In this document: piece by piece, positions 3,921-44,295 of the stretch
Numbering within the stretch: the stretch's first letter is position 1
Layout: each line of letters opens with the position of its first letter
DNA from: Nemertoderma westbladi
Lineage: Eukaryota > Animalia > Xenacoelomorpha
Length of the DNA: 64,000 bases
NCBI GenBank assembly: GCA_032718475.1
Contig: JAUCBJ010001883.1
Span: forward strand, 5,069 to 69,068
Direction of reading: 5' to 3'
Notes under the pieces: generated by a model
Told to the model about the DNA's origin: nothing
The model's input: only the letters and a program-made list of their open reading frames with translations
Databases searched by the model: none
Translations under genes and position numbers: made by a program

Positions 3921-6424
3921 GGCTTGTGTTTAAGTCACGAATGGAAAAATTAAACAGCTGGGAAATAACGGTTTAGTGGGGGTTTAAATTTATTTATTAA
4001 AAAGGCTTCAGTATGAATTCTTTCAGCATGGGATCTGAAAGACGTATAAACTGCCGCCTTTAACAATCCGTCGCAATCTAGAAAATGCTCCCCTAATAAA
4101 TATTCGCCGTCTCTTATACCATAATACCGGTTGCAGGTACACCATAATTTTGCATAACGCCGCCACTAGGCCTATCCAATGCGAATCAAGCAGGCACAAA
4201 TTTGCAAGTAGGAGTAGATAAACTATTAACGCATGCATTAACATTTTCGCATGCAAACCAAGTGAATTTTTTTTAAGCACAGTAGGCTAATACAGACCCT
4301 TTTTGTAATTATAGAATTTGCTAAATGCACGTAAGTTAAGTTGGGCGCCAAGGGCAAGGCACGCCATTCCCGCAAAGTGTGCAGGAGAAGCCCGCTAAGG
4401 CGGCGCAAGACCCCCAAAGGCCACAAAATTCCATATCGGTACCGGTTCACAGTCACTATACAGTACATACTGTATGATATACACAGTAGGAATACCATAG
4501 GCCTGAATTAATATAGGCCTGGGGCAAGTTAGGATATCACTGGTAAAGCTTGTGTGACCATTTTTGCAAATTGTTCTTTTTGAATTTTTGTTGTTTATTT
4601 ATTGGTGAATGTTGTAGAACCTTAGTAGATATTTTCTAATGGTAGCTAGTGTTTTTTATTCGCTAGTATTTTTTGAAAATGTAAACAAAATTAATATACA
4701 CTGTAAACTGCTATAATATCCTCAATATGTTTTGTCATTTTATATTCTGCAACAGTTTAAACCTGAAATATCAATGTTTTCACATTTTTATATAATTTCA
4801 AAAAATACAAGGTAGTAAAAAAAACATTAGCTACCATAAAAAACATATCTACTAATGTTCTAGAACACTTACCAATAACAAAAATTAAAATTCACGTATT
4901 TTTAAAATTTACAAAATGGTTACACATATATGAAGAGACAATAACAAATACACGAATCCTGCAATATCATACTATAGAGTCTGTGAATCAAAGCATAAAT
5001 CCGACCTTCTCACCAAAACAGTAAACTCCAAGTAGGCAAACCTATTGCAGTATCGGTCTCTTATAACCGGTGAGGCAGAAAACAGTCTACGAACGGACAA
5101 ACTTCGATAAAACAAAATCCCGCGCAGCGAATCCTAAAATCGGGCTGACTCACTGACGGACTAAAGGCGCTCGTATACTTTGCCGCGGTGTGATTTATAT
5201 GATGAAAAAGACGCTAGCTACAAATATAACCAGCGGGAAAATCCGCAGTGTGAACAAATTATTTTATATATTTTGAGGTGCAAATAATTCCTAAACGCGC
5301 GTGTGTTTTAATTCATAGGTCAAAATTGATTTTTATCCTTCATATACTCTCATTTACTGGGTCCGGCGTTTATTTTACAAATATTCTAATATTTTGGTAA
5401 CTTGTAGGTCCAATACTTACAAATAATAAGGCTCCTTCCCCTTTCATGTATTTCCAGGACTCAAATTCAGGCATAGGGTTAATGCTACGCCCAGAATTCG
5501 GCAATTTAATTTACCAGGTCCCTAATACTAAGAAGAAATGTGTTAGTTTACTACTGTAGGCGTACGGTTACAAATAGCTATCCTGGCTCTTATCTGGAAT
5601 TTTAGTCACCTAGGTAGGCTGGGTAACTTCCTATCAGGACGTTGGCGGGGACACGGTAGGTGTTAGTATCCCTAAATAGCCTTAATTTATTTGTGCCTAG
5701 TTGTAAACTGCCCTACCGCCTGAACGGTATAATCTCAATTCAGGGAAAACACAGCAATCCTCTCCTGGCCTACAAGTTCCAACGCAAGCAATAAACACCG
5801 TGTACTGCCGACAAGCCACCAACGCACCTATACCTGACAATGAGTTAGGCGTACAGTTTTGCTGCACCCTACCAATGTACATGCCGGGTAATGGTGTGCC
5901 TGTGTCCTATCTGCGTACGGGTATCTCTGTCTAACTTTCCTTTTCTCCCCGTAGGAATATGAAGGGGTTCTGCGGGTTTTCCAAGAATTGGGACAATACA
6001 GTTCTTAATTTAAATTTTGGCGTACAGTGTGTCGCTACTCCTACCGTCGATCTTAGGTCTTACACTTAGGTAGCGAAGCATCGAACACTGTCTAACCTTC
6101 AGGCGATGGGCGAATAACTCGAATAGATATTGTGGGCGGTCTCCTGTTCATATTCCCCGATGTTCCCGTTCACTGCTGCAGCCCGATGTCTAGCCGGCCA
6201 TCCTGTTCTTTAGGGGCGTTCACCGTGGTGAAACATAGTAAAACAGATAGGAAAAAGGCAGATATAACAAGTATTTTTAACTTTTATTACAAAAGGATAT
6301 ACATAAACGTAACAAGAAACTAATAGATAACTAATAAAGATAATCTAAAGCACGAATGATTGAGATAACTAATGATAGATAGAAGTATACGATTGAGATT
6401 GATAACTAATGATCGAAATCGCAC

Positions 6425-6571
6425 CTTTTATAGCAAATTTGTCCTGCAATCAATCGAGAAAATTCTCGATTGTTCTATGAGTTCTAATAGGTTTTTAAAG
6501 ATAACTATTGGTCCAGCGAATATATAACTTGCACGACATTGGTTATAATCTAATAACTACAGTCCCATTGG
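6425..6571 (-). promoter_or_regulatory. LTR U3 Pol II promoter: three CCAAT boxes and a TATA box
   Basis: Minus-strand CCAAT at 6571-6567, 6542-6538 and 6511-6507 (~30-bp spacing), then TATAAAAG at 6432-6425. Confidence 0.7.
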
Positions 6572-6650
6572 TTAATCTAGGTACAGACAAATGCAATTTA
6601 AATTGTAGCGGTCAATTTAAATGAGTTGAAATTCTGTACAAAAAATAATT

Positions 6651-6724
6651 CGCACCTACAAGGATTCGAACTCAATACCTACTACATATAATTTCCAACG
6701 CTCTACCGACTGAGCTGCTGAACC
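6651..6724 (-). ncRNA. tRNA-derived Pol III-type cassette in LTR U3 (not a functional tRNA)
   Basis: D-arm/A-box GCTC-AGTCGGTA-GAGC, B-box GAGTTCGAATCC, T6 run at 6645-6640. Acceptor and T stems do not pair. Confidence 0.65.
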
Positions 6725-7701
6725 ACTTGAATAATCATCGTACAAATAGATATAGTAAATACAAATGAGGACTCAATGTAATCTTTTAGCAAAGTTAATT
6801 CGAATAAAATAAAATTTTGAAAATCCACGGCATTTATGAGAATATAATTCTATACCGCTCCATGAAAACAGGATATTATCGTGCATAAAATATACGGTTT
6901 TCACCAATACTAAATCAAATTATAGAATACTTAGGACGTACTTACATATTTACAAATTAAATCTCAACAATAATACCTTTACATAATAATTCGATACAAA
7001 ATAATTACAAATTCAAACTTTACGTATTTAAGGCTTTATTAAGTAAGTACAATATAAATCTAAATTAAATTCACCAAAATAAATCTATTGCATCTCAAAT
7101 ATTGCATAAATTCAAACAATCACAAATACTAATACTACTTAAATATAAAACAAATTGCATAAGTTCGGAATAATTTCAAATAATCACAAGAAAGGCTCAC
7201 AAGTCTTCCGTCTGCTCTTGCCTTCTATTTACTGCGAATACAAGTACTGCTTCTTTATAAAATATAAATTGCATAATATTCGAAACAATAAATTGCGTAA
7301 GTTTGGAATGACTACAAATATAGCACTTTTTAAATATAAATCTTTCTAAATTGCATAAGTTTAGAATAATACTGCATAAATTTAGAACAATATAAACTCC
7401 TTTTACATCTCAAATATGAAATATAAATCTTTCAAATATAAATCTTTCAAATATAAGTTCCTTCTAAATATAAAACTTTCTAAATTTCAAATTGGAACAA
7501 TACAAATACATAAATTTAGAACAATATAAATTGCATAAACTTAGAATAATATAAATTGCATAAACTTAGAGCAATACAAATTTTAAACAATACAAATTAC
7601 CTAAACAATTCAATTTACATAAACAATACATAAAACAAACATAAAATAAACAATTCACAAGAAAGGCTCACGAGTCTTCCGTCCACTCCTTCCTTCCCGC
7701 T

Positions 7702-10700
7702 TTAACGCTTAGCGGATCGAGCCCTGCCGTGTCCTCGAAAACTGCGTATCGGCGATTTAGCTCGTGATATGGGACTTGTGGGGCGAGCCACTGGTTTACT
7801 TTGGACGTTGAGAGACGGTACGACCGTTTCCTCACATATTCGTCTCTTAGTCATCCCAAATCCTCGTCCAATCCCTCGTGACCGATCTGTTGTATCTACC
7901 GCTGGTAAAACGTCTGGGAACGCACGGAAAGCGGACGACGCAGACCCAATAGAAGCTTGCGCCCCCTTTTGATCAGCTGGTATATGTCCCGATCCTCCTT
8001 GCAGTTCTCTGGGAAGCGAAACCGTATCCCGAGTAATTCGAATAGTCGGTTCGTATCCCCTTCGTTCTTCAACGTTGATAGTTTTCTTTAACTGTTGGCC
8101 CACTTTCTGGACCCGTATGATCCTACCCTGTCCGTCCTCCCGAGGGTGACGTGCAGACGGCGCGACCGGTGTAGCTGGTATGTTGGTCGCCTCTAGGACC
8201 TCCTCTTCCTCGAATACGCTCGCTCGTATACGTTTATGGTAGAACGCGGCTCGGTACGCCCATGCGACGGTTAACCAAGCTCCCTTGTTCCGCTTTTCCG
8301 TTCGGAACTGATCAAATTCACCATAGGTGATACGATTGACTACTTTCTGGAAGTTCCATGTATTCTTATTGTCAGGGTGTATCTGTAACAAATATTCGCG
8401 CACAACTCGGAATCCGCTATCGTGAGGCAAAATATCAACTACCTCGATGAGTTTGTCATATTGCGGCATAGCAGAGATATATCCTTCCGACATCATAGTT
8501 TGAGGATTTACCGCCCAAAATCCAAGATGCGCTCTCATCGGGAACCGTCGGCTTCTTTGCGCTGCTACATGTTCGTCAGCCAAATCTTCCCACTCATCAA
8601 ATAGTTTTCGCACGAGTTTTACAGATTCGTGTTTGTAAGGTATGTCTCTTAGTTGGCATTCAGATGCTCGATGTCCCTTTATATTGCAGTAGGTACATTG
8701 AGCCATAAATCTCCAGCAAGTATAAAATGTATGGGACCCTTGATCTCCACACCATCCACAGATTAGTTGAGTTGTAGTAATGTGCTTTCCACTGCACTTT
8801 GTCGAATGATGTCCAGCGACGCCATATTTACCACACATCGTATTAGCAGGGTACCACACTCGCTCATATATAAGATCGCCAATGGGTCGAGCGCTTCCTC
8901 CCACACTATAATCATAATCGTCTGGATCGATAGGTTGGTATGTTTCAGAAGGTTGTATGCAAACTACAGCATCTGTTGCTTCTAATTGTCGAATCTCCGT
9001 CTGAGATTTCTTCGGGAGGTTCCTTTCAATCTCAAGAAGTTCCTCTAAAGGATCATCGATGGCTGTCCTTACTTCGAAATCATCACCTAAGTGACCGATA
9101 GGCGCACGCGTCTGCCGTGATTCGTCCGTAAGCTCCACGATACGTTCTCCTTCATAGGGTAACAATATAAACATAGATGGTCTTTCGATAAGAGATCCCG
9201 CACAGCGAAGATACACGTCTCGAAATATACTGAATCCTGCTCGAGTGAAGGCATTACACTGAGCGTCGGAATTATAGAAGGGTTCGAGAAACCGTCTAAA
9301 CACATCGGTATGAATTCTCCCTTCCGCGTGGAATGTATGATCTTCTCCGAGGCAAAGTGGATATCTTTTAAGAGTCCGAGACACAATGTCGGCGACTAAG
9401 CAAACATTCACTGATGACTCTATCGCTAAATAATATTGTAGTAACGCTCTTGGAGGTGAAGTAATAGCCCAATATACGCATCCTCTCCATTTGAGCTGTG
9501 ATTCAAACTCATTTATATCTGGAGTATCACCTTCTCCATACGTTTCGATATACTTTGTTCTTTTACTTTCCTTATAATCCCAATTAAACATCAAGTAGGA
9601 AATATATCCAGTTCCGGTTTTCTGAGTATCATACTCACGGAAGTATCCTTGTTCTATAGACCACAGTATAAGAGGTCGAGTGTCGATGTAAGGTGTCGGT
9701 AATCGGTCGTCACTGTCCGACATGCCGGCGAAGTCACTAATTAAGTCCTCTCTTACTCCTGATCCAATCTTTACAACAGTTTTATCTAAAATCATATTTC
9801 TCACCGTCTTTGGTAACATTCTAGCATCGATATTGCAAGCCTGGTCCATTTTCTTTACTATATTTGTGATGAACTGGTGCTGCTTTGTAGTTCCTGGAGG
9901 TATCGGCATTCGCTTGTCGCTCCTTTGTCTACTGAAAACGGGCAAAACTCCGTCTGCCGCTCTAATTTGTATAGTCTTGGAGGTTAGACTCTGCTGATGG
10001 CTGCCGCCCTCGTTATCATAAAACATGTAACCGTTTTCCTGAAACGATCTAAACGTCCTATTCCATTTGTCCAATAATTCTTCCGAAGGTTGCCAAATCT
10101 TCTCTATATCTTTCTCGTCCTCGAAACGAATGACTTTACCTTGCCAGTCCGCAGCGATATCTGTATCCGACTCAAAGGTTCCTGTTCCAATCCATAAGCG
10201 AATTGTTTTGGTTAAATATCCTTTCAGGTTACTCGGAGCTATATCAGCGCCAGCTCTATCCAGTTCCCTAAAGTCTTGAATATGAGTCGGAACATTATGC
10301 ACGACCTTTTGCGTAATATGTCTACGTAAATCATATATCTTAACCATATCGCTTAGAACAACTGCAGGAAGAAACTCTAAGTTCGAAATGATTTCCGGAT
10401 GATCCACAATAGGTATTTCATACGTTGTATCTTGTCGAACTGGTATACTAATAGGGAAATTGAGTGTCGTACTCAATGGTTTCGTAGTTGAAGTACTATA
10501 CGGTTGCATTTCTCTTGTCCTTTCCGGGGATGCAATCTGTAGTCTCTGAATAACGTTTTGAGCAAAGTTTATACTCTCGAAAACTTCCGGTGTCATCTCC
10601 TTAGCTGAAGTTTGATCGTGTGACGTCCAATGGTAAGGTAGGCTCGCGAGTCTTCCGCCCCATTCTTCCATCTCACCTTTCTCGAAAGCCTTGTAGGCTC

Positions 10701-11427
10701 TGTATAGGCTAAGAGCTTCTTTCTTTTCGCGGGTTGACTGAGTCGCCTCGTCCAGCGTAAGTTCGAATACATCGGGTTCAACAACCTTAGGTGGGTAAAC
10801 GACAATTTCTCCCGCCTTTGGTCCAGTCATGGCGAATGAATGATATGGATTCGATAAAGGATACCCTCCTTCCTGGTAGCGTAGTTGTTGATGGTTCGAA
10901 CACCTCGCCAATATCGGTTCGGGATTTTCCTTATTCAAACGCATCGGAATCGCATTTCGTTGTTCGCGCATACAAGATCCGCATTGATAATAAAGTTTAT
11001 AAACTGAAAATGCTTCCTTAGTTTCTCTATCGTCCCCTCGAGTTCGTCTGTAAAGAAGCATTCCATCAAATTCATCTCGTACCGCAGGCATAGTTTCGTG
11101 CGCCTTCAGGTATTGCATGGTATGATACAAACGACTAATTTCAGTATCGGGGTCTTCGCTAATGTCTCCCGTATCACACAAAGCGTCGTACGGGTAAAGT
11201 TCATTGAAGGTTTTGCGCAAACTTTCGATTCTTTCATTTAACGCGTTTTGCCTTCTCTTTATTACATTCGAGTCATATTTCGTTCTCACGAGTTTCGCTG
11301 TACTTTCTGATAAATCCTTTATTCCAAATATAGTGTAATCCTTAGCTCCAAATCGTTCGAATGGCGCTGCTTCTTCCTCTTGGATATCATATCCCCATCT
11401 CGGCTCTCCTTGTATCCCCTTCGCCAT
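7702..11427 (-). CDS. BEL accessory ORF3 (1241 aa): DEDDy 3'-5' exonuclease (WRN/Mut-7/RNase D-like) plus CCHC zinc knuckles
   Basis: ExoI MFYDNEG (D471, E473); ExoII LPKTVRNMILDKTVVKIGSGVREDL (D561); YIDT; ExoIII-like W...LLQYYLAIE (Y666, E670). Knuckles CGWCGDQGSHTFYTC and CTYCNIKGHRASEC. No signal peptide or TM segment seen. Confidence 0.8.
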   Translation of the reverse strand: MAKGIQGEPRWGYDIQEEEAAPFERFGAKDYTIFGIKDLSESTAKLVRTKYDSNVIKRRQNALNERIESLRKTFNELYPYDALCDTGDISEDPDTEISRLYHTMQYLKAHETMPAVRDEFDGMLLYRRTRGDDRETKEAFSVYKLYYQCGSCMREQRNAIPMRLNKENPEPILARCSNHQQLRYQEGGYPLSNPYHSFAMTGPKAGEIVVYPPKVVEPDVFELTLDEATQSTREKKEALSLYRAYKAFEKGEMEEWGGRLASLPYHWTSHDQTSAKEMTPEVFESINFAQNVIQRLQIASPERTREMQPYSTSTTKPLSTTLNFPISIPVRQDTTYEIPIVDHPEIISNLEFLPAVVLSDMVKIYDLRRHITQKVVHNVPTHIQDFRELDRAGADIAPSNLKGYLTKTIRLWIGTGTFESDTDIAADWQGKVIRFEDEKDIEKIWQPSEELLDKWNRTFRSFQENGYMFYDNEGGSHQQSLTSKTIQIRAADGVLPVFSRQRSDKRMPIPPGTTKQHQFITNIVKKMDQACNIDARMLPKTVRNMILDKTVVKIGSGVREDLISDFAGMSDSDDRLPTPYIDTRPLILWSIEQGYFREYDTQKTGTGYISYLMFNWDYKESKRTKYIETYGEGDTPDINEFESQLKWRGCVYWAITSPPRALLQYYLAIESSVNVCLVADIVSRTLKRYPLCLGEDHTFHAEGRIHTDVFRRFLEPFYNSDAQCNAFTRAGFSIFRDVYLRCAGSLIERPSMFILLPYEGERIVELTDESRQTRAPIGHLGDDFEVRTAIDDPLEELLEIERNLPKKSQTEIRQLEATDAVVCIQPSETYQPIDPDDYDYSVGGSARPIGDLIYERVWYPANTMCGKYGVAGHHSTKCSGKHITTTQLICGWCGDQGSHTFYTCWRFMAQCTYCNIKGHRASECQLRDIPYKHESVKLVRKLFDEWEDLADEHVAAQRSRRFPMRAHLGFWAVNPQTMMSEGYISAMPQYDKLIEVVDILPHDSGFRVVREYLLQIHPDNKNTWNFQKVVNRITYGEFDQFRTEKRNKGAWLTVAWAYRAAFYHKRIRASVFEEEEVLEATNIPATPVAPSARHPREDGQGRIIRVQKVGQQLKKTINVEERRGYEPTIRITRDTVSLPRELQGGSGHIPADQKGAQASIGSASSAFRAFPDVLPAVDTTDRSRGIGRGFGMTKRRICEETVVPSLNVQSKPVARPTSPISRAKSPIRSFRGHGRARSAKR

Positions 11428-11454
11428 TATTAGAGGTATGGTTACATAATCATA

Positions 11455-11491
11455 CTACTAGAGGGAATACAACAGAGTTTATTGTTAGTTG
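11455..11491 (-). promoter_or_regulatory. Putative splice acceptor for ORF3
   Basis: Minus strand CAACTAACAATAAACTCTGTTGTATTCCCTCTAG-TAG: CTAAC branch point, pyrimidine tract and tandem AG about 30 nt before the ORF3 ATG. Confidence 0.55.
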
Positions 11492-12085: not shown

Positions 12086-15000
12086 CTATTTACTAATATT
12101 AGTTGGAGATTTGTAATCTCCAGACTCGTTTCGCGTCTCTTCAAGAAGTACGAGACGTTGTGTCGGTCTGTCTACTGTACGACTGTCAATTGTCCGTACA
12201 GTCACAGTTCTTGTCACACCATCCATAGATGGATGTGTGTCTAAAATTACACCTGTTATCCAGAAGCGTCTTTTTAGATTCACTTCCGCCAACAGCACAT
12301 GATCTCCCGCTCTTAAAGCGCGAGTTTTGTTGTACCAGGTTGTTCTGGCAGAAATAGAGGGCAAATAATGGTTTTGCCATATTTCCCAGAATTTGTTAGC
12401 TAGTAGTTGCGTGATTTTCCACGCTTTTCTACCGTAGCTATCGCCTTCTATTGGAATAGAAATAGGCGTCAAAGTAGTCGGTGCCTGCATAAGCAGGTGT
12501 GCCGGTGTCAAAGCAAATTGGGATTGTTTGTCATCGGGTACTAATACTATTGGTCTAGTATTTAGTATTGCCTCGATTTCAACAAACAATGTTGTCAGTT
12601 GGTCGTCTGTCAATATGTGGTTTACTGGAATTACTTTTGCCATGGCTGTTTTTATAGATCTAATCAATCTCTCCCAGACTCCGCCTCTCCATGGACTGTC
12701 TGGAGGATTAAACTTCCAAACAATCTTGTAAGGACGTAGTTCGTTTGAGATTTGATCATGATCTAAATTCTTAAAGGCTCTAGCAATTTCATTTCGAGCA
12801 CCAACAAAGTTTGTACCTTGGTCTGAGTACGAGCATTTCACTAGTCCGCGTCTAGCGATAAATCGCCTTAATGCTAGTATAAAGGCATTGGTGGAAAGAT
12901 CCATCACACGTTCGATATGAACTGCCCTACTGGACATGCATGTGAAAATCAGTCCCGTTTACTAGTATACGTCCACGTTTCGTATGTATGGGACCAAAGC
13001 AGTCAATTCCAGTCTCTGTGAAAGGTGGTCTGAATGCCTGTAGTCGTGCTTGTGGAAGTTCACTCATTTCTTGGGTACTTATTCTAGAATGTACCTTTTT
13101 ACAAATAATACACATACGTGTCACTGAACTTAACGCTTTACTGGGTCTAATTAATACAAATCTTGTACGTAAATATGAAAGACAGTGGTGTCTTCCAGCG
13201 TGTTTCAGATGTAAATGTGCGTCCAGTATCATTGCACGTTGTAATTCGTGATGCTGCGGTATTATTATTGGGTACCTAAAGTTTGTGTTAAAGTCAATGT
13301 TTTGAAGCCGAGATTTATGACAAATTAAGCCATTATGAATAATCGGACTCCAACTCAGTATTGGTGATGACTTGATTGGTTGACCTTGACTTATAGATGT
13401 GAATTCGCGCGCGAAATATCGCAATTGATAATGCCGAATTAATTTAATTTCACATCTGTCAATCTCAGTCAATGTGAGTCGACGTGTAAAGTCGCGTTTG
13501 CCTTTAACGTATTGTACAAAACGTACAATCCACGCTAATTTTCGGCACGCGTTGGTCCAAGAATCTGTTAGGTTTACAATACGGTCGACGTAAGTATTTG
13601 TGACGTCATCAGGTAAGTCAATGGAGAATTTGGAAGGTTTTGATTTACTAGATGGGCCCACGAGTCCGCCGGTAGGTATTCCCTTGTTGACTGTTGATCC
13701 GTCCGGGTCTACAAGTAATTTGTCCTTCTTTGTTTTCTTACCTTGATTGTCAGTACTTTGTAAGTCGATCGTTAATGGTGGTTTGAACTCTATGGGATCA
13801 CTGGGTTTCGGTAAACTTATTTTTCTGCCGATATTAATCCCAGGTCTCACCGTAGGTTGTAAGGTTGGTATGTCTCTTGAGCGTAAAGTAACACCTGTAT
13901 TTACATTTGCGTAGGTACTACCCACATCTGTAATACATGAGGTTTCACTGTGCTTATGGTTACTCAAGAGTGTTAAGTTTGGTAGTTTGTCATTAGAAGG
14001 CCGCTCCAATAGAGAAACTGCGGCTTTACTATTAGTCAACACATTACTAATGTCTGGTGGAACATTTTGTGACATGTCTGGTAAAATGTTTCGCGGAACA
14101 TCCGGCGAAATATCTAGTGACATGTTTGGCAAAACGTCTGGTTGACCGTCTAGTAACGCGTCTGGTTGTTTGTCATTAGAAGGCCGCTCCAATAGAGAAA
14201 CTGCGGCTTTACTATTTGTCAATATGTTACTAGTGTCTGGTAGAACATTTTGTGATATGTCTGGCAAAATGTCTGGTTGGCTTGTCTAGTAACGTGTCTG
14301 GTTGACCATCTGGCGATACGTCTGGTAACATGTCTGGTTGACCGTCTGGCGATACGTCTGGTAACATATCTGGTTGACCGTCTGGCGATACGTCTGGTTG
14401 AGAAAGGCTCGCAAGTCTTCCTGCCCTAACTTTGTGAGTTATATTCTTCCATTTCGCCTTTGGTTTCTTCTTAAGTTTCGCCGTTGTCCTTTTCTTTGCT
14501 TTACTTTTCTTTGGTTTTTTAATTTCGGCGTCCTCAGGAATAGTGTTAGACTTGTTATCGTATAGTGGCGGCCAATATTGTGTTGCTCTTTGTAAGAATT
14601 GTGGTCCGTGTTGCCAAAATTCTTTGTTCTCCGGTTTACAGAATTCCTCAGGCATCATTCCTCGTGACGCAATATCAGCTGGATTTTGTGGTCCGGGACA
14701 ATGTCGCCAATCTTCCTTTATTGAACGGTCTAGAATTTCTGCACGACGGTTAGCCACGAATGTCTTGAATTCAAGTGTATCGTTGTTTATGTAAAATAAA
14801 ACCAACGTCGCGTCAGTCCAATAAAATATCTGTAAACTTGACTGTAGTTCTGTCTGTATAAGGTTCACGATTGTGGTTGACAGGGTTGCGGCTTGTAGCT
14901 CAGCGCGTGGTGTCGTCATATACTTAGTAGGCATGGTCTTAGCCTTAGAAGTAATGAGCGAAACATCAAACTCGTCTGAGTCTACTTGTCTGCGCAAATA

Positions 15001-18000
15001 CGCTGTCACACCAAAGCCATTGTCACTGGCGTCGGAAAAACAATGTAATTCCAAGTTGTCAGGAAATGTCGTCTGTAATGGAAAGTACACCCGGGGTATG
15101 GAATAATCCTCTAACGAAGATAATTGCGCCTCCCAAGTCTTCCATAAGTCCACTTGTTCGGATGAGATCGGTTCGTCCCATGTCAGTCCATCTTTCCAAA
15201 TACTGCGCATATAAATTCTGGCTTGCAGTATTATTGGGCTGATGAAACCTAATGGATCAAACAGTCTACTTAGTTTCGACAAGCAAGACCTCTTTGTCAG
15301 AGAATCCCCTTCAGCGTCCAGTTTTACTTTCACTCGAAAGTTGTCTGTGTTCGGGTCCCAAAATAGTCCCAACACCTTGGTCGTCGGCAGTGGTTCGAAC
15401 TCTAAGTCAATATCACCACCCCCACGTTCAGTCGTTTCGAATGAATTTACCAATTCAGTGCTGTTTGAGGCAAACTTAGTGAGGTTAAAACCTCCGCCTG
15501 TTAAACAGTCCCGTAATTGATGTGCTACTGTGATAGCACGTTCTACTGTGTCACAACTTTGTAATCCATCGTCCACATAAAAGTCTCGTTCTACGATGTC
15601 GATTATCTCTGGGTCATATATATGTTTCTGATCCCTAGCGGTCTGTTTTAGGGCGTACATAGTGCAATTTGGGCTGTCCCTGGCACCGAAAACGCGAACT
15701 TGCATTTGGTAAGTCGCCGGTGGTAGACTTAAGTCTCCTTCCGGGTACCAGAGGAACCTCAAACTGTCTCTGTCTCGCTCTAACGCTCGCACTTGGTGAA
15801 ACATCGCTTCTACGTCACAAGTAAATGCTACTTGGCGCTGACGGAAGCGCATAATCACCCCCATGAGATAATTATTCATGTTTGGTCCGTCCATCAACTC
15901 ACTGTTGAGAGACATTCCTTCAAACAGGGCCGCGCAGTCGTTAACTACGCGTACTTTATCTGGTTTGTCGGGGTGTCTCACGTAGTGATGTGGCAAATAG
16001 TATGTCTGGTCTGTCACAATCTCTGGGTTTGTCATCCTGATAGCGTACCCTTTTGTCAAATACGTCTCCATCTGAGTATTGTACTGCAGATGGGCTTTCT
16101 CGTCCTTTAATAAACGTTGTCGTATTGAGTGTAGACGTCTTAAAGCTAGCGGATAGTTATTTATGAGTTTAGGACTCTGGTTACGCCATAGCATCCCTAC
16201 CTCATAATGTCCGTCTTTCGTCTGGCGGATAGTATCTTCCATGATCTTCAAAGATTGTTTCTCTTGTTCCGACATACACGGTTCGTAACTACCGGGTTCT
16301 GCTGTATCTTGTTCTAACCACCTGATAGTTTTCTCTGTTAACTCTTTGTCTAATGCAGCTTGTTCCACTTGATGGTTTCCTAACGCGTCATCATCGACGG
16401 GCGTTGTTGAGGTTATTGGTGTAGATAGACTCACAAGCCTTCCGGCGTTATCATCTGTCGTCGATGGAACCTCTGCCTGACTCGTCTTCTTCTTATGCTC
16501 TATACTAACCTTGTGGATAGGCTTCTTTCTGTGACTTATCGTATTTGCTACACACGTCGTACTCGTCGCTTTGTCGTGTTTCGTCGAACGTAGTGTAGTG
16601 TAGTCTATGTCAGGTGAAAAGGAATGAATCGAAGTTGTAGTTAGTAAACTACATGTACTTTGTACATCGTCTTCCTCATCACTTATATCCAGTGTGCGCA
16701 CAGGCGCTCGAGTATACCACCTTATCGGAGTTCTACAGGCGTAAGCGTTTCCCGCTACGACTACCGATGGTCTGGTTTCCCACACTTGATGTAGGTTGAA
16801 TTGGTCCGTCCCGATCAGCATTGCTACCGACCTATAGTTGACAGGACATTCAGGTACACCAAGGTGTCTGAAATACTTACGGTCCTCTAAGGATTGCTCT
16901 GGGACTGGACCTAGTAGGTTACTAAAGTCCTTTATGGCCGCAAAAGTCAAATCCTTAAAAGGTAACAAAGACCTCTCCTTTTCGCTATGTTGCGATTTTG
17001 GAAGAAGAGTGTCCAAGTTTAACTTAACTCGTGTCACTGGTATTGCACGTTGTCCATGCATACTACTTACAGTGTACTTTACGTGTTTACCTTGTCTGAG
17101 ATCTGTGACGACATCAGCTACCTTCTCATCCACGTAGCTGTGAAATGAGGCTGAATCTAGGATAGCGTAGATCCTTTTGCTCCCTTTTGTGCCAGTGATC
17201 TTAACGGGAATTACACTAAAACCCTTTAATTGGTCAGGCGTCAAAAGTGCAATCGATGGTTGTTCGTCTTCATCTGAATATATGTCTTCGTCTTCAGATT
17301 CTTCTCCAGAAGAACCGGATTGTTCTGGGAAGCAATCCCTAATATGTGTCACGAAGGTTGGCGTCGTTCTCGATTCACGTGTTTTGTATGCACTATTGCA
17401 TTTTGCTGCAGCTTCCGGGTGTTCCCTGGTGAAGCGTTTGGTCGGCGTATGACTGTCCGTGTGGAGCAGACCGTCATGGTTGCGTCCACAGTAAGGACAG
17501 GTGTCCGTATTTGGGCAGTCCTTACGGACATGTCCATGTAGCGTACACCGCCAACAAGAATCCAATGGCCGTATTTGCAGTCGTCGTTCCTCCGAGTTCA
17601 ATTCGTGGAATAGTCGACATCCTCTCAGTTTATGGCTAGTATGTGGTTTACCTAGCCATTCGCAATATTGGCAACCGCTAAAAGTCTGTGCTCAGTTGCT
17701 GTCGGGTCTGTTTGGTTCCAATTGGTGCGGATACCTTATTACTGTCTGAAAATTGTCGGGTTTCGGTCGGTGTAGCATAGGTGACCGTCTTTGTAGATGT
17801 CGTTGGTGGTTTCTGTCTGTTTGATGATGGTAAGGTTATTCCTTCCGCCACGATATGTTGGTCCGTGTAGTTCGAACGCGTCTCGACTACTGCCTCTCTA
17901 GATATCAGTAAGTAGACGTCTTCCAACTTCAAGAATCCACCTCTCTCTTCTCGCTGATATTCTATCTTTCGCCACTCCCGACGAAGTCGATGGTGTAATC

Positions 18001-20908
18001 TTCCTATTATTTTCAACAGGACTGTCGGAGTGTTCGCGTAGTCAAGTTGTCCAATCGAGCGTAGTGTAGTAATGGCGTTTTTAATCTCGTCAGCCAATTT
18101 CAGTAAGTCAACGGGTTTTGTAATAGCCCCTCCCTTACAGAGTTCTTCTATTACTGACTTAGCCATACTTACGGTGCCTCCGTAAATCGATGTTAAGCGA
18201 TCGTACGCTAGTTCGAAGGCATCTGGTACACCAACAAAAGTCTCCGCTAGACGTTTCGGTTCTCCCGATAATGTTTGTAACAGGTAGTTGAATTTTTCTC
18301 TCGATGTAAAAGCACACACAGCGATTTGAGATTCAATGTAGTCTACAAAGGTGTGCCAATGTTTAGAGTTGCCGGAAAACTTAGGTGGTTGTTGCACCGG
18401 TAGTCCTTGTCTCGCTGCGAATTTCGCTATTTCTTCAGCAACGTTCAAAGTTTCGCGTCCTGGGTTGGCAACCTGGTTGATGTTCTCCCTTCTTGGCGCT
18501 TTTCTTTGATACGATGTGTTGGTCAATGGTATTTGTCTTTGCGGAACTTTTGGATTTCTATTGTGTTCGAATTCGGAATTTCTCGAACTATCGGAGTGAA
18601 CTTCCTCCAAGCGTTCCTCTATCTGGGCCAACTTGTTGACAACTGGTCGCAGAATGTCGGCAAATTGTTGAGTACTGATTGCGTCCGTTGGTTGTAACGC
18701 CCTTTGTGTTGGTGTATTCTGTGGAGGATTGTCAATAAATGAGTTATCTGAACGCTCACGTTTACATTAGTCGGCCGCTCCTGTTCTAAATACCTCGCGT
18801 TTCGGGTAATCCGACTCACTTGAAGTACTACTGTCACCTGGATACGGTGGTCGATGTGCTCGTGTCCGTTGCGTCGTCCGAATTCTAACGTTTCGCTTCG
18901 GAACATCGTCTACTGGTCTCCTTTGTTCGGTAGGCTCACAGGTCTTCCTCGAAGTCGTAGATTGCAATGTAAACTGGTTAAACGGTCGCGTATCCACTGG
19001 TCTCCGTTGCTCGGTAGGCTCGCAGGTCTTCCTCGAAGTCGTAGATTGCGATGTAAACTGATTAAACGGTGGTCGAGTGACAGCGTTTGAATCTAAAGGC
19101 CTTGTAGGCCTAAACGTCATTGGGTATGTGTAGTGCGTAACGGGTTTTGGTGTCGAAGGTGGACTCACCTGTTTTGTCGTTAGTAGTGCAGGTCCGGTCA
19201 ATAAACTACTACGATCGGCAATCGGTGGGTTACTTACCTTGACTTTCAGAATAGGCGACGACGTTGCTCTTGGCGGTATGAACTTGTCCGGAATAACAAA
19301 CCTGTGTTCCGTCGCACCATGGATAGGAGAAATATTACTACTACCCGCAATCGAAACAGGTTCCTTAGTCGTAACTGGTGCAAACATAGGAGTTACTTGA
19401 GGGAATCTTTGACATAAGTCTTTAACTAGTTGTCTTTCTCGCCAAGGTGCCCCTACACTTCCTTCCTTCATTCGTTCCTGAATTTGGCGGTGCCTTACCT
19501 CTATCTGGTCCAAATCATGTCCGTCACGAGATCTCATCGATCGATCGCGGGATAGAAGATCCAGATTTTCCTTGGCTTCGGCTAGTTCTCTCGCCTTTCT
19601 TTCGAGTTCGAAATGAAGTTTAACTTCCTTCTCGCGTTGTTCCGTCAGTTGTTGTTGCGCCTCGAACTCCGCTTGTCGTATAGCTGATTGAGCCTTTATT
19701 TGCCGTTTTTTCAATTCGGCTTGGGCTTCCGAAACTCGCCTTTGTTCGTCTAACGCTGCCGCTGCCGCTTGTCGTTCCAACTCGGCTGCTGCCGCTTGTC
19801 GTTCCAACTCAGCCGCTGCCGCTGCCGCTGCCGCTGTCGCTGTCGCTTGTCGTTCCAACTCGGCTGCTGCCACTCGTTGCGCTAACTCAGCTGCCGCTGC
19901 TCTTTGTGCTATTTCTAGCTCCAACCTTTCCATCTCAGCCGCTTCCAACTCGGCTTGTTCTTGCAGATGAGAGATTCTCGCAACATTTGCAACGCGTAGC
20001 TTCTCTTCCTCTACAGCCGCTTGTACAGTTAACAATTGAGTTTGTTCTTCCATTTCTCGTTGTTGTCTGTGGTACAGTTGTTGCTGTCTAGAAATTTCTG
20101 ACGTCACTATACTTACCTCGCCAATTTCGCTGCGAATACTCACTAACGATTGGTCCAGTATTTCCGGTGCCGATTCGATTTGTACGGGTAAAGTTCCCCT
20201 CGTATATTCCGGCACGGTTTCCAAATCGCCGACGTCTTCGCCACACATACGTAAGTGATCCGTCAGATGTTTCAGTTGTCCATCCAGTCGGTACAGTTCC
20301 TGTTCTTCCTCGGGCTGTAATAACTCGTCGGAAACCGACTCACCTAGCAACTGGTCCGCTTGTTCCTGTTGTATCTGTCTAATGGTCGTCTTAAACTGAA
20401 TCAGTTTCTCCCTAGCGATCATTAATTTCTCGAGGATTCTAAACTGTGTGTCCATATCCTGTCTCTGTCTAGCTAGATCTTGTAGACCTATTAGATTATC
20501 TACGGACTTATGTACTCTACTCTGTACTCTCACCTGTAGAGTGTAGAACTCGAATCGAGACATCGGAGCGGTCAACTCGTCTAATATGCGTTGGCCTTCT
20601 CCAATACTCCTAGTAATATGCGCCATGTAACCGCCGACGCTTCTAACAACTCTTTCTGTGCTTCCTACTGAACTTACCATCTCCGTTTCCCTATGTCTAG
20701 GTTGCGGGACCGTTAGAAAGTCCTCAGTCCTGCCGTCGCCTCGTACTACGGCATCCGGTACTCCCGTTGGATGTACTGGTGACGCGCACGGTGTATGTTC
20801 GGCAGGCTCGCGAGTCTTCCCCTGTAGTTCTTCCGCTGCTGACTTATCCGCGTCACATGAGTCATAGTCGGTTTGTGTATTCTTCGTATAGTCTTGTTTG
20901 TCACTCAT
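12086..20908 (-). pseudogene. BEL/Pao gag-pol polyprotein, disrupted
   Basis: Coiled-coil Gag N-terminus; Pao Gag core (PPKFSG...EKFNYL); three Cys/His knuckles; protease AILDSAS; RT YLPHH...FYVDD; RNase H FSDAS...NPADIASRG; integrase HHCC and SDQGTNF...GGVWERL. Lesions: in-frame TAA at 18769-18767 and frameshifts near 17685, 14280 and 12957. Confidence 0.93.
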
Positions 20909-21706
20909 TTCGGTAGTTGTAAGTCAAGTAAAGTGAGTGTCAAAGTATCAAACTTACGGTATTTGTATAAAAACGGTATTAATTACAGTCATATAAAATT
21001 AGCCTACCGGCCGATTTTATAGCAGATGGATAAAATTAGCCTAAACGGCCAATTTTACAGCAAATAAATGTCACGGAATAAGTATATAATAAAATTAGCC
21101 TACCGGCCAATTTTATAACAAATAAATCGGATAACGATATGCGTTATCAAAAGGTAAATTAAATACAATAATACGGACTAATTCAGCAATAAACAAAGAA
21201 ATCGTACGGAATGCATAAATACTTGAGACAGTGGAACCCACAATAATTTTAACTAATACGGTAATGCCTAACTTATTTATGCAACTTTTCGAACTCACCC
21301 CCTCCAATGATTCTCCAGAAAAACAGATTCCCAGATACAAACCGGACGTGAACCTTTCCGTTTCCAGCGTTGCGGACGAAGTGCGATTTTCCCAACCAAA
21401 GTTGTTGAGTTATCTATCTCCCAAACTTGCTAAACACGGTCTTGCTCTCGTTACAGTCTAGAAATGAGCTCTGAATCCTGAAAAACAAAAGAGTTAGGTT
21501 TTACTTTTACGAAAATTTTGTACCGGTTCAATATGGTATTTAAACCCCTTTTTTAAACACCGGTATTCAATTCCAAAATATTTTACACGCATTTCAAATC
21601 AAAATTTTATTCAAAATATTAGCACTTAGCTAATCAAATACGAATTTTTACCTCAAAATACAAAATTTTCAAATAATTTTGTTCTGCTGAACCGTAGTTC
21701 AGAAGA

Positions 21707-21718
21707 TCATATTCCTAC
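21707..21718 (-). other. Non-tRNA primer-binding site candidate GTAGGAATATGA
   Basis: Abuts the 5' LTR, lacks the TGG expected for tRNA CCA pairing, and is exactly complementary to LTR positions 22742-22753 and 5951-5962. Confidence 0.6.
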
Positions 21719-23290
21719 TATATGAAGAGACAATAACAAATACACGAATCCTGCAATATCATACTATAGAGTCTGTGAATCAAAGCATAAATCCGACCTT
21801 CTCACCAAAACAGTAAACTCTAAGTAGGCAAACCTATTGCAGTATCGGTCTCTTATAACCGGTGAGGCAGAAAACAGTCTACAAACGGACAAACTTCGAT
21901 AAAACAAAATCCCGCGCAGTGAATCCTAAAATCGGGCTGACTCACTGACGGACTAAAGGCGCTCGTATACTTTGCCGCGGTGTGATTTATATGATGAAAA
22001 AGACGCTAGCTACAAATATAACCAGCGGGAAAATCCGCAGTGTGAACAAATTATTTTATATATTTTGAGGTATAAATAATTCCTAAACGCGCGTGTGTTT
22101 TAATTCATAGGTCAAAATTGATATTTATCCTTCATATACTCTCATTTACTGGGTCCGGCGTTTATTTTACAAATATTCTAATATTTTGGTAACTTGTAGG
22201 TCCAATACTTACAAATAATAAGGCTCCTTCCCCTTTCATGTATTTCCAGGACTCAAATTCAGGCATAGGGTTAATGCTACGCCCAGAATTCGGCAATTTA
22301 ATTTACCAGGTCCCTAATACTAAGAAGAAATGTGTTAGTTTACTACTGTAGGCGTACGGTTACAAATAGCTATCCTGGCTCTTATCTGGAATTTTAGTCA
22401 CCTAGGTAGGCTGGGTAACTTCCTATCAGGACGTTGGCGGGGACACGGTAGGTGTTAGTATCCCTAATAGCCTTAATTTATTTGCGCCTAGTTGTAAACT
22501 GCCCTACCGCCTGAACGGTATAATCTCAATTCAGGGAAATCACAGCAATCCTCTCCTGGCCTACAAGTTCCAACGCAAGCAATAAACACCGTGTACTGCC
22601 GACAAGCCACCAACGCACCTATACCTGACAATGAGTTAGGCGTACAGTTTTGCTGCACCCTACCAATGTACATGCCGGGTAATGGTGTGCCTGTGTCCTA
22701 TCTGCGTACGGGTATCTCTGTCTAACTTTCCTTTTCTCCCCGTAGGAATATGAAGGGGTTCTGCGGGTTTTCCAAGAATTGGGACAATACAGTTCTTAAT
22801 TTAAATTTTGGCGTACAGTGTGTCGCTACTCCTACCATCGATCGTAGGTCTTACACTTAGGTAGCGAAGCATCGAACACTGTCTAACCTTCAGGCGATGG
22901 GCGAATAACTCGAATAGATATTGTGGGCGGTCTCCTGTTCACATTCCCCGATGTTCCCGTTCACTTGCACGACATTGGTTATAATCTAATAACTACAGTC
23001 CCATTGGTTAATCTAGGTACAGACAAATGCAATTTAATTTGTAGCGGTCAATTTAAATGAGTTGAAATTCTGTACAAAAAATAATTCGCACCTACAAGGA
23101 TTCGAACTCAATACCTACTACATATAATTTCCAACGCTCTACCGACTGAGCTGCTGAACCACTTGAATAATCATCGTACAAATAGATATAGTAAATACAA
23201 ATGAGGACTCAATGTAATCTTTTAGCAAAGTTAATTCGAATAAAATAAAATTTTGAAAATCCACGGCATTTATGAGAATATAATTCTATA
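21719..23290 (-). repeat. 5' LTR of the BEL element (1572 bp, lacks the TATA segment)
   Basis: Direct repeat of 4927-6854 with a 355-bp deletion at 22965/22966; tRNA-like cassette at 23087-23160. Confidence 0.95.
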
Positions 23291-23435
23291 ACACAAGCTA
23301 TACCAGTGCCGTTAGGATTAGATAGGGCCACTGAACCCGTATAAATGAAGTTTATTTAATCTTAATGATGGAGAATCGTAAAAAACTTAAACAGTATCTC
23401 TTCAATTCGTAATACCATTGATGTTAAAGTGCCTT

Positions 23436-26400
23436 TGACCGAATCTGCTCCGATAACCTCAGTTTCATGTTCAATGCCGCAGTTGGCTGAATCTTCCCAG
23501 ATAACCCCAGTTATGTGTTCAGCGCCGCAGTTGGCTGAATCTGCCCCGTAACCCCAGTTTTGTGTTCAGTGCCGCAGTTGGCTGAATCTGCCCCGATAAC
23601 CCCAGTTACGTGTTCAGTGCCGCAGTTGGCTGAATCTGCCTAGATAACCCCAGTTTTGTGTTCAGTGCCGCAGTTGGCTGAATCTGCCCCGTAACCCCAG
23701 TTTCGAGTTCAGTGCCGCAGTTGGCTGAATCTGCCCCGTAACCCCAGTTACGTGTTCAGTGCCGCAGTTGGCTGAATCTGCCCAGATAACCCCAGTTTTG
23801 TGTTCAATGCCGCAGTTGGCTGAATCTGCCCAGATAACCCCAGTTATGTGTTCAGTGCCGCAGTTGGCTGAATCTGCCCCATAACACCAGTATCGTGTTC
23901 AGTGCTGCAGTTGGCTGAATCTGCCCAGATAACCCCAGTTTTGTGTTCAGTGCCGCAGTTGGCTGAATCTGCCCAGATAACCCCAGTTACGTGTTCAGTG
24001 CCGCAGTTGGCTGAATCTGCCCAGATAACCCCAGTTTTGTGTTCAATGCTGCAGTTGGCTGAATCTGCCCAGATAACCCCAGTTATGTGTTCAGTGCCGC
24101 AGTTGGCTGAATCTGCCCCATAACCCCAGTATCGTGTTCAGTGCTGCAGTTGGCTGAATCTGCCCAGATAACCACAGTTACATGTCCAGTGCCGCAGTTG
24201 GCTGAATCTGCCCCGATAACCACAGTTACATGTCCAGTGCCGCAGTTGGCTGAATCTGCCCCGATAATCCCAGTTACATGTTCAGTGCTGCAGTTAGATG
24301 AATCTGCCCCAATAACCCCAGTTACATGTTCAGTGCCGCACTTAGATGAATCTGCCCCGATAACCCCAGTTACATGTTGAGTGCCGCAGTTAGATGAATC
24401 TGCCCCGATAACACCAGTTACGTGTCCAGTGCCGCAGTTGGCTGAATCTGCCCCGATAACCCCAGTTACATGTTCAGTGCTGCAGTTAGATGAATCTGCC
24501 CCAATAAACCCAGTTACATATTCAGTGCCGCAGTTAGATGAATCTGCCCCGATAACCCCAGTTATGTGTTCAGTACCGCAGTTGGCTGAATCTGCCCAGA
24601 TAACCGCAGTTACATGTCCAGTGCCGCAGTTGGTTGAATCTGCCCAGATAATCGCAGTTACATGTCCAGTGCCGCAGTTGGATGAATCTGCCCAGATAAC
24701 CCCAGTTATGTGTTCAGTGCCGCGGTTGGATGAATCTGCCTAGATAACCCCAGTTTTGTGTTCAGTGGGGCAGTTGGCAGAATCTGCTCCGATAACCCCA
24801 GTTACGTGTTCAGTGCCGCATTTGGCTGAATCTGCCCCGATAACCCCAGTATCGTGTTCAGTGCTGCAGTTGGCTGAATCTGCCCAGATAACCCCAGTTT
24901 TGTGTTCAGTGCCGCAGTTGGCTGAATCTGCCCAGATAACCCCAGTTACGTGTTCAGTGCCGCAGTTGGCTGAATCTGCCCAGATAACCCCAGTTTTGTG
25001 TTCAGTGCCGCAGTTGGATGAATCAGCCCCGATAACCCCAGTTACATGTTCAGTGCCACAGTTGGATGAATCTGCCCCGATAACCCCAGTTACATGTTCA
25101 GTGCCACAGTTGGATGAATCTGCCCCGATAACCCCAGTTACGTGTTCAGTGCCGCAGTTGGATGAATCTGCCCCAATAACACCAGTTACATGTTCAGTGA
25201 CGCAGTTAGATGAATCTGCCCCGATAACCCCAGTTACATGTTCAGTGCCACAGTTGGCTGAATCTGCCCAGATAACCCCAGTTACATGTTCAGTGACGCA
25301 GTTAGATGAATCTGCCCCGATAACCCCAGTTACATGTTCAGTGCCGCAGATGGCTGAATCTGCCCAGATAACCCCAGTTACATGTTCAGTGCCGCAGTTA
25401 GATGAATCTGCCCCGATAACCCCAGTTACATGTTCAGTGCCGCAGTTAGATGAATCTGTCCCGATAACCCCAGTTACATGTTCAGTGCCGCAGTTGGCTG
25501 AATCTGCCCAGATAACCCCAGTTACATGTTCAGTGCCGCAGTTAGATGAATCTGCCCCAATAACCCCAGTTACATGTTCAGTGCCGCAGTTAGATGAATC
25601 TGTCCCGATAACCCCAGTTACATGTTCAGTGCCGCAGTTAGATTAATCTGCCCAGATAACCCCTGTTACGTGTTCAGTGCCGCAGTTGGATGAATCTGCC
25701 CCGATAACCCCAGTTACATGTTCAGTGCCGCAGTTAGATGAATCTGCCCCGATAACCCCAGTTACATGTTCAGTGCCGCAGTTAGATGAATCTGCCCCAA
25801 TAACCCCAGTTACATGTTCAGTGCCACAGTTGGCTGAATCTGCCCAGATAACCGCAGTTACATGTCCAGTGCCGCAGTTGGCTGAATCTGCCCAGATAAC
25901 CCCTGTTACGTGTTCAGTGCCGCAGTTGGTTGAATCTGCCCAGATAACCGCAGTTACATGTCCAGTACCACAGTTGGCTGAATCTGCCCAGATAACCCCA
26001 GTTACATGTTCAGTGCCGTAGTTAGATGAATCTGCCCTGATAACCCCAGTTACATGTTCAGTGCCGCAGTTGGCTGAATCTGCCCAGATAACCGCAGTTA
26101 CATGTCCAGTGCCGCAGTTGGCTGAATCTGCCCAGATAACCCCTGTTACGTGTTCAGTGCCGCAGTTGGCTGAATCTGCCCAGATAACCGCAGTTACATG
26201 TCCAGTACCAGAGTTGGCTGAATCTGCCCAGATAACCGCAGTTACATGTCCAGTGCTGTAGTTGGCTGAATCTGCCCCAATAACCCCAGTTACATGTTCA
26301 GTGCCGCCGTTAGATGAATCTGCCCTGATAACCCCAGTTACATGTTCAGTGCCGCAGTTAGATGAATCTGCCCAGATAACCCCTGTTACGTGGTCAGTGC

Positions 26401-27169
26401 CACAGTTGGATGAATCTGCCCCGATAACCCCAGTTACATGTTCAGTGCCACAGTTGGATGAATCTGCCCAGATAACCCCAGTTACATGTTCAGTGCCGCA
26501 GTTAGATGAATCTGCCCCAATAACCCCAGTTACATGTTCAGTGCCGCAGTTAGATGAATCTGCCCAGATAACCCCAGTTACTTGTTCAGTGCCGCAGTTA
26601 GATGAATCTGCCCAGATAACCCCTGTTACGTGGTCAGTGCCACAGTTGGCTGAATCTGCCCAGATAACCGCAGTTACATGTCCAGTGCTGCAGTTGGCTG
26701 AATCTGCCCCGATAACCCCAGTTACATGTTCAGTGCCGCAGTTAGAAGAATCTGCCCCGATAACCCCAGTTACATGTTCAGTGCCGCAGTTAGATGAATC
26801 TGCCCAGATAACCCCAGTTACATGTTCAGTGCTGCAGTTGGCTGAATCTGCCCCGATAACCCCAGTTACATGTTCAGTGCCGCAGTTAGATGAATCTGCC
26901 CAGATAACCGCAGTTACATGTCCAGTGCTGCAGTTGGCTGAATCTGCCCCGATAACCCCAGTTACATGTTCAGTGCCGCAGTTAGAAGAATCTGCCCCGA
27001 TAACCCCAGTTACATGTTCAGTGCCGCAGTTAGATGAATCTGCCCAGATAACCCCAGTTACATGTTCAGTGCCGCAGTTAGATGAATCTGCCCAGATAAC
27101 CCCTGTTATGTGGTCAGTGCCACAGTTGGATGAATCTGGCCCGATAACCCTAGTTACGTGTTCAGTGCG
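23436..27169. repeat. 48-bp satellite, ~78 units
   Basis: Consensus GTGCCGCAGTTGGCTGAATCTGCCCAGATAACCCCAGTTACATGTTCA; some 47-bp variants at the left end. Confidence 0.97.
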
Positions 27170-31151: not shown

Positions 31152-32073
31152 ACTGTGACACAGAGTGACACAAAACTATTTGAAGTGTTATGGGACTCCA
31201 CCTATTGGCTCCAAAAGTCGAGGAAATCCTGCCAAGTACCTAACTGATCTAGACTTTGCTGATGAATCACTAGAGGGAGCCCAATGGCTCCCCAGCTCAT
31301 TAGAACAGGCTGCTTCTAGTGTTTGTCTTTTTATTAACTCCACAATTTTGACAGTTAACTTTGCAAGTCCTCAGCAAGTCTCTGACCGGGGAGCATAAGC
31401 TCAAAGGATGGTATGCCTGAGCATGTGGACTCTTTTGTGGACTGTTCTGTTACCTGGGATCATGGATCCGGAAGTCAGGTGAGGACCTTGGAATACGTAA
31501 GGGAAAGGCATGGGCAGCCTTGAATAGGCTTTACAGGATTTGGAAGTCGAATTGAATTAATCGGAAACTTAAGGTCCAATTATTTAGAGCAGCAGTAGTA
31601 CCAGTACTCCTCTATGGGAGTCTATGCTGGGCTCTAACTCCTGAGGACACCAAATCTCTGGATGGCGCATTCACAAGAATGCTACGCCGGGTTCACTGTG
31701 TCAAGTACAATGCACACATCTCCAACCAGAGACTATATAACAATGGAGGTGTCTCATTGGTTCCCCCAAGTTTGACACTAGAACAATGCCCCTTCCGCTT
31801 TGCAGGACATTGCTTTCGCCGTGAGGACCTGCCATTGCATAATCTTGTGCTTTGGCAGCCTCATGGAGTGAATAAGCATGGTGGGCAGCCCATGACTTTC
31901 TTGAGACGCATCTTAAAGGACACTGGCCTTGAAGATGCGGATGATCTACCAAATTGATGATTGATTGAAAATTGATTTGGTGATATGGTGTTGTGTCAGT
32001 GCAATTTTTTCAACAAGCCGGCACAGCATTCTTAAAAATACAGCTGCAATGCAGTATGCCGATCCGAGTAGTA
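31152..32073 (+). mobile_element. RTE-type LINE 3' fragment
   Basis: YLTDLDFAD, RFAGHCFRR...VLWQP; same family as 52275-53648; GATCCGAGTAGTA tail. Confidence 0.85.
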
Positions 32074-44102: not shown

Positions 44103-44295
44103 TATAATATATAGCACATTAATAAATTCAACCATTGGCAATTTATCTAGTGTAGAAAGGTGGATAGTTTTCACCGTATGCGTATATCATACTGCTATAC
44201 TTTGCTGTAATCATTATATACCGGTAACTGGTATTTGAGATTAAAATTTAAGATTTTAGAAATTTAAGAATTTAATTAAGATTTGTGATTGAAAT

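Follow-up and report, generated by a model that had tools for sequence, protein, structure and literature searches.

A BEL/Pao retrotransposon with a primer-binding site complementary to its own LTR: a candidate for self-primed reverse transcription

How does a BEL/Pao retrotransposon initiate reverse transcription when the sequence directly behind its 5' LTR offers no site for a tRNA? The question is raised by an element in the window, that is, the whole 64-kb stretch of Nemertoderma westbladi DNA analysed here. According to the ICTV profile of the Belpaoviridae, priming in this family relies on a host tRNA, with an 18-nt primer-binding site (PBS) for the 3' end of tRNA-Arg or tRNA-Gly (PMC8742986). 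In the window element, TGG is absent behind the LTR, as stated in the initial annotation of this DNA, and the first 12 nt of the internal region are exactly complementary to a segment that is present in both LTRs. The sequence comparisons described below suggest that the primer is very probably made by the element itself and that Tf1-like self-priming, with a cut in cis after position 22742, is the probable mode. Assigned by its protein, the element is a BEL/Pao variant that, with respect to priming, does not appear to be a canonical member.

The element occupies positions 4927-23290 on the minus strand and spans 18.4 kb with TA..TA termini (Table 1). The gag-pol product contains, in this order, the Pfam domains DUF1759, Peptidase_A17, H2C2 (integrase) and DUF5641, together with a reverse transcriptase (RT) with the YVDD motif. 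Like the canonical Belpaoviridae, it thus combines the LTR-gag-pol order and Pao-type domains, the integrase following RT/RNase H, with LTRs, a target-site duplication, a polypurine tract (PPT) and the extra 3' ORF known from some members; the domains are those of BEL/Pao and not the Gypsy-type pol of the Tf1/sushi group, which are Ty3/gypsy chromoviruses. Unlike the canonical members, the window element is devoid of a tRNA PBS, its LTRs, ending in TA..TA, are 1.6-1.9 kb long as against 0.2-1.2 kb, and its total length exceeds the 4-10 kb of the ICTV profile (PMC8742986). Identity to the best protein relatives, which carry the same Pao-type domains, does not exceed 44%; those with a name come mostly from marine invertebrates (molluscs, cnidarians, echinoderms and nemerteans, 40-44%). 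In a tree made by a quick method and containing no named reference elements, the window element stands alone on a long branch; the BEL/Pao lineage names Sinbad/Sailor and Suzu come from the accessible part of PMC6238403.

Table 1. Features of the BEL/Pao element (positions in the window)
Feature	Positions	Strand	Remarks
5' LTR	21719..23290	-	1572 nt; TATAG...CATATA
3' LTR	4927..6854	-	1928 nt; begins TATAG, ends CATATA
Target-site duplication TGTGT, left copy	23291..23295	-	
Target-site duplication TGTGT, right copy	4922..4926	-	
Anti-PBS in 5' LTR	22742..22753	-	candidate self-primer, ends in AC; putative cut at 22742/22741
Purine run	22726..22741	-	first 7 nt predicted to pair with U5 end 21730-21724 (p 0.4-0.5)
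PBS without TGG	21707..21718	-	candidate; adjoins 5' LTR, offset 0
c(UACG)g hairpin	21687..21702	-	directly behind PBS; pair probability 0.96-1.0
Predicted branch point and 3' splice site	21478..21500	-	exon from 21477
gag-pol	12086..20908	-	five pieces: in-frame stop and frame changes
Extra 1250-aa ORF	7702..11454	-	between integrase and 3' LTR; intact; three CCHC-like knuckles
Polypurine tract GGAGCGG	6855..6861	-	adjoins 3' LTR; spacer 0, mirrors PBS offset 0
Anti-PBS copy in 3' LTR	5951..5962	-	same 12-mer

The two LTRs differ by 0.76% (12 substitutions over 1572 nt), in addition to a 1-nt gap and a block of ~352 nt (6175-6526) of the 3' LTR that is missing from the 5' LTR, at 22963/22965, so that the LTR size of 1.9 kb given initially is valid for the 3' LTR but not for the 5' LTR. 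The 22963 edge of this block is present in contigs of all four sequencing runs. Given the low LTR divergence and the fragmentation of gag-pol, we classify the element as a BEL/Pao copy that is young but now broken; with its gag-pol broken, the copy informs on its family and not on its own activity.

The ends of the LTRs are fixed by the 5-bp TGTGT duplication (23295-23291 and 4926-4922) together with the PPT junction (6855/6854), and therefore the match between the PBS and the LTR begins at offset 0, exactly at the LTR boundary, as had been claimed. The exact complement reported for both LTRs was likewise recovered: one strand has a single 12-mer (21707-21718), the other has two (22742-22753 and 5951-5962), and there is no further occurrence in the 64 kb. 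The probability of such a match had been put at ~1e-4 under uniform base composition, which proved too low. Among 5000 dinucleotide shuffles, 1 produced a 12-nt match at offset 0 and 4 produced one at offsets 0-5; of the 14853 internal positions, 6 find a 12-nt complement within the LTR, so the fair figure is about 1e-3.

Conceivably, the PBS might be the decayed remnant of an ordinary TGG site in a copy that is dead, with the LTR boundary set wrongly, given that the ORFs are broken and that, were the LTR to end 2 nt earlier, a damaged TGG could be made out in the letters preceding the PBS. However, the target duplication fixes the LTR end, the PBS letters are the same in other copies, and TGG does not occur in the first 5 nt behind the LTR in any of the 18 distant relatives analysed below; this highly improbable explanation is largely refuted already. 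Priming by an internal tRNA fragment or a host small RNA, with the LTR match arising by chance, also has to be considered, inasmuch as half-tRNA primers exist in some Copia lineages according to the accessible part of PMC6317226. With a chance of about 1e-3 for the LTR match and its recurrence, in different letters, in 12-15 of the 18 relatives, this appears very unlikely. As a control from the same window, a Gypsy element (39501-34327, minus strand) with an intact 1543-aa ORF and 186-nt LTRs that are 99.5% alike has an ordinary TGG PBS, which indicates that other elements of this host use tRNA-type sites.

Copies of the family are abundant in public DNA runs. A survey of other copies over 21655-21785, with a variant floor of 1% and based on 61 contigs (4 runs, 3 studies), revealed no variant at or above that floor inside the PBS (21707-21718) and 8 variable places around it; a TGG-type PBS, the finding in other copies that the initial annotation had named as damaging to its case, was not seen at this floor. 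Run X5 yielded contigs that do not cover the PBS or the anti-PBS. At 21703 and 21686, most copies carry mutually pairing letters that lengthen the stem of the c(UACG)g hairpin, the window copy being the deviant one at these positions. One contig of run X4 has the 4th letter of the anti-PBS changed, with 11 of the 12 letters kept and the flanks otherwise diverged; a PBS change matching it was not among the listed variants, where rare contigs fall under the 1% floor. No letter-for-letter compensatory change was seen within the family, and the relatives available for comparison are distant from this long-branched element.

To what extent self-complementarity is a property of BEL/Pao elements beyond this family can be judged from more distant relatives. 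We took 94 loci, namely, the best 79 distinct ones of 554 metagenome matches and all 15 genome-contig matches; 26 pattern matches in viral contigs included 0 relatives. A direct repeat surrounds pol in 47 of the 94 loci, and 18 were kept in which the 5' LTR end is definable, the repeat in the other 29 running off the contig or having an unclear end. These relatives are 37-45% identical to the window element over RT-RNase H and at most 46% identical in the tree comparison. Contiguous self-matches in them are 6-9 nt long, except for L079, with 11 nt, whose LTR likewise ends in TATA. When, however, the match is allowed to run across any GT..AG pair, 15 of the 18 relatives reach 10-15 nt, each with its own letters, and the donor is GTAAG at 11 loci of this unconstrained search even though it was not required. 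Under stricter splice filters, 12 of the 18 pass, compared with 12 of 2166 pseudo-sites from the same leaders. Three loci (L027, L049 and L088) have no match of at least 10 nt under either filter, and three others (L005, L045 and L073) fail the strict filter only.

Thus, most matches in the relatives span a predicted GTAAG..YAG intron, and one is contiguous, as in the window element. Matches across a predicted intron were found in metagenome and MAG contigs for L005, L018, L019, L022, L030/L033, L037, L045/L060, L062, L069 and L081/L082; the introns, predicted from DNA only, are 67-164 nt long in most relatives and about 450-510 nt in L081/L082. Several loci represent close or identical families (L030/L033, L045/L049/L060, L081/L082 and L018/L019/L069/L073), which leaves about nine independent groups. 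When PBSs and LTRs were exchanged between elements, the window PBS did not exceed a score of 7 on any of the 18 foreign LTRs, nor did any foreign PBS exceed 8 on the LTR of the window element; high scores are mostly confined to families, the exceptions being the L005 PBS on the L019 LTR (10), the L019 PBS on L030/33 (10) and the L079 PBS on L073 (11). Complementarity, the loss of which in related families had been considered a possible refutation, is therefore kept in distant BEL/Pao families with letters of their own. The idea that splicing extends the window element's own primer was rejected, with scores of only 9 and 4 in the unconstrained and strict searches, respectively. The 15 genome-contig loci (L080-L094) are BEL/Pao elements in contigs filed as bacterial MAGs, which are likely to be misbinned DNA of animal hosts.

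If the pairing does define the primer, its geometry should be reflected at the other end of the element: the offset of the PBS pairing should mirror the spacer between the PPT and the LTR because the 3' end of the pairing would be the primer end. We compared the two values in the window element, for which offset and spacer are 0/0, and in 11 relatives, taken one per family and having a match of at least 10 nt as well as a readable PPT. They are equal in 8 of the 12 elements and within one base of each other in all 12 (rho 0.82, a value attained in 4 of 10000 permutations; 0.76 without the window element and 0.91 without two close kin), with the reservation that the values were partly set by eye and that kin share labels. 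Such tracking agrees with a primer end at the 3' end of the pairing. AC terminates the paired segment in 8 of 13 relatives and in the window element, and ACT does so in another 3 relatives; the PPT of the relatives ends in CGG, which may be compared with GGAGCGG here.

Folding predictions for the leader are compatible with pairing in cis. Four folds of 1.09-1.24 kb that differ in their 5' ends give the 12-bp helix between the PBS and the anti-PBS, which encloses a loop of 1023 nt, a pair probability of 0.72-1.0. The c(UACG)g hairpin noted initially behind the PBS was confirmed in these predictions (Table 1), and a second c(UACG)g hairpin covers the 3' half of the anti-PBS 12-mer in the local minimum-energy fold. 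A 7-bp helix joining the purine run to the U5 end, predicted only with the limited probability given in Table 1, would prolong the primer helix; a flanking RNA structure at the U5 end reportedly figures in Tf1-type self-priming, as the title of a 1998 paper by Lin and Levin has it. Two other parts of the initial description fared less well. The letters flanking the 12-mer that could form a CCCC/GGGG stem are present, but the stem has a probability of 0 in both long folds that contain it, and it was rejected as the structure presenting the primer, the local fold having the second c(UACG)g hairpin in its place; and the purine run does follow the 12-mer, but has no counterpart behind the paired segment in any of the 13 relatives checked (13/13). 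Both features appear to be family-specific and are not supported as key parts. A local hairpin between the U5 end and the PBS forms in isolation and was discarded because its probability in the long folds is 0.

The folds predict more long-range pairs in the leader, and the only strong splice acceptor in 20900-23290, the one before 21477, lies behind the PBS. Both of these features would suit a different role for the pairing, that of a structural switch, be it for packaging, for dimerisation or for translation versus splicing, with some other host RNA priming at the same site. We consider this improbable: the paired segment sits exactly at the primer position, its end shifts with the PPT spacer from one family to the next, and one host primer would need to fit many different PBS sequences.

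Self-priming in the manner of Tf1 could proceed as follows. The full-length RNA would fold back such that the PBS pairs with the anti-PBS of the 5' LTR; a cut after 22742, a position that we infer, would be made by the RNase H of the element itself, by analogy with Tf1; the 3' end freed at 22742 would then prime minus-strand DNA at the LTR edge; and R would start at 22741, downstream of the primer segment. Transcription start, cut, enzyme and priming all belong to the model rather than to the observations, and the 12-bp helix bridging 1 kb is itself predicted. The initial suggestion that the RNA of the element is the source of the primer is supported by the constancy of the PBS in other copies and by the retention of the self-match in relatives, priming as such being deduced.

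An element-made primer might also possess a natural 3' end, either that of the genomic RNA at 5951, a site put forward initially, or that of a short LTR transcript acting in trans from another copy or a solo LTR, so that RNase H would not have to cut the 5' leader. The presence of the 12-mer in both LTRs and the high repetition of the family are in line with this, and the matches in the relatives, as well as the tracking of the PPT spacer by the offset, fit an element-made primer of any origin. Nevertheless, such a primer seems unlikely. There is no AATAAA 10-30 nt before 22742, the nearest signals in the 5' LTR being an AATAAA 259 nt downstream of 22741 and an ATTAAA (23038) about 290 nt upstream of 22742; a polyA signal follows the paired segment in 10 of the 13 relatives, which places the segment near the 5' part of R; and fold-back in cis is strongly predicted. 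Release of the 5'-LTR copy by a cut in the style of Tf1 is the more likely origin of the primer. As for the transcription start, TTTAAA is found 52 nt upstream of the anti-PBS, and a TATA-like box precedes the paired segment by 26-31 nt in 2 of the 13 relatives.

Since the acceptor lies behind the PBS, a spliced gag mRNA would be devoid of the PBS. In run X4, which was guessed to be DNA, a single contig connects about 22889 with about 21479, with 23 nt on the shorter side, and the joint coincides with a donor-like site at 22887 and the acceptor of exon 21477; contig depth in this run also falls just inside the acceptor, so that the run may be RNA despite that guess. If the joint is real and represents spliced RNA, it would place the start of some transcripts >150 nt upstream of the 12-mer, and the primer would be longer than that of Tf1, in a departure from the Tf1 scheme.

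In most of the distant relatives, the same kind of primer would be assembled across a spliced intron within the LTR, and in the window family it would be contiguous, either by intron loss or as a separate state. Extending this, one can envisage a large animal branch of BEL/Pao that gave up tRNA and self-primes, in which most families assemble the primer by host splicing of an LTR intron, so that only spliced RNA replicates, the 18-kb window element being the intron-less form, where gag mRNA without the primer arises by a second splice, to 21477. We regard this wider scenario as evenly balanced between being right and wrong.

Self-priming by an LTR element is not unprecedented, but is established solely for Gypsy elements of the Tf1 type. 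In Tf1 and Tf2 of Schizosaccharomyces pombe, Tj1 of S. japonicus, and the Tf1/sushi and Tcn1 groups of Ty3/gypsy elements, the PBS matches 11-12 nt of the element's own LTR and a tRNA site is absent, according to the accessible text of PMC4600332 and PMC5341516; in Tf1, the RNA's initial 11 bases are paired with the PBS, and RNase H makes its cut between bases 11 and 12 (PMC7175516, available part). The window element resembles this group in that its PBS complements its own LTR in place of a tRNA, and differs from it in belonging to the BEL/Pao superfamily and in the 1023 nt that separate the partners. In addition, the paired segment of Tf1 comprises the first bases of the transcript, whereas that of the window element is only putatively the RNA 5' end, and the primer split across a predicted intron in the distant BEL/Pao relatives has no equivalent in the accessible descriptions of Tf1. 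The mode thus likely works like that of Tf1 in an element that belongs to BEL/Pao. In the available part of PMC6317226, Tf1/sushi elements are described as self-priming, and self-priming is predicted both for Tcn1 and for the plant Ty1/copia group TAR/Houba/Osr-1, in the latter case from complementarity of at least 10 bp starting 0-5 bp behind the 5' LTR. By the same measure, the window element has 12 bp at offset 0; as in TAR/Houba/Osr-1, self-priming is predicted here from sequence alone, and the strategy is all that the window element has in common with that plant Copia lineage.

That BEL/Pao elements normally use tRNA had been stated initially and agrees with the ICTV profile; the initial annotation added that self-priming is not known from BEL. 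Our literature search, the scope of which stopped short of most subscription journals, supplements and Repbase, found no report of BEL/Pao self-priming and no splice-built primer of the type predicted in the relatives; the accessible portions of PMC554778, PMC3118150 and PMC6238403 make no statement on a PBS or tRNA, and those of PMC8220671 and PMC3601003 add nothing on BEL priming. If true, self-priming in BEL/Pao would be a third, independent origin of this mode and would revise the estimate of how often tRNA dependence was lost. The failure of LTR annotators to detect a PBS in these families would then be explained as well, and, by implication, the families would be beyond the reach of silencing by tRNA fragments.

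Several other features of the element and its surroundings deserve mention. Loose contig ends, assessed by eye, point to sister subfamilies in which the end of the LTR, at 21719-21750, is altered or extended, apparently by a ~30-nt unit starting like the PBS; this unit may be a trace of primer copying or of a shifted primer site. In U3, at about 23165-23075 and about 6730-6635 (both minus strand), a tRNA-like stretch with A-box/B-box-like letters and a T run was noticed by eye; no call was made there by ARAGORN, which identified 0 genes, or by Rfam, whose sole match over 21400-23400 (E 0.39) is attributable to chance, and the highest contig depth of run X4 falls on it. The extra ORF (11454-7702), which by eye is unlike a typical env, had no match in a Pfam search and one weak match (0.82) in a protein atlas. 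The N-terminal extension of gag (20908-18770, minus strand; >700 aa), also without a Pfam match, is rich in Q, E and A and includes a coiled-coil-like stretch. Elsewhere in the window, a 48-nt tandem array of about 78 copies with 90% matches (23441-27168) starts 150 nt upstream of the element, a fold-back element with long inverted arms lies at 935-1812, and another dispersed repeat is present in several copies (31195-32073, 44294-45117 and 52273-53180).
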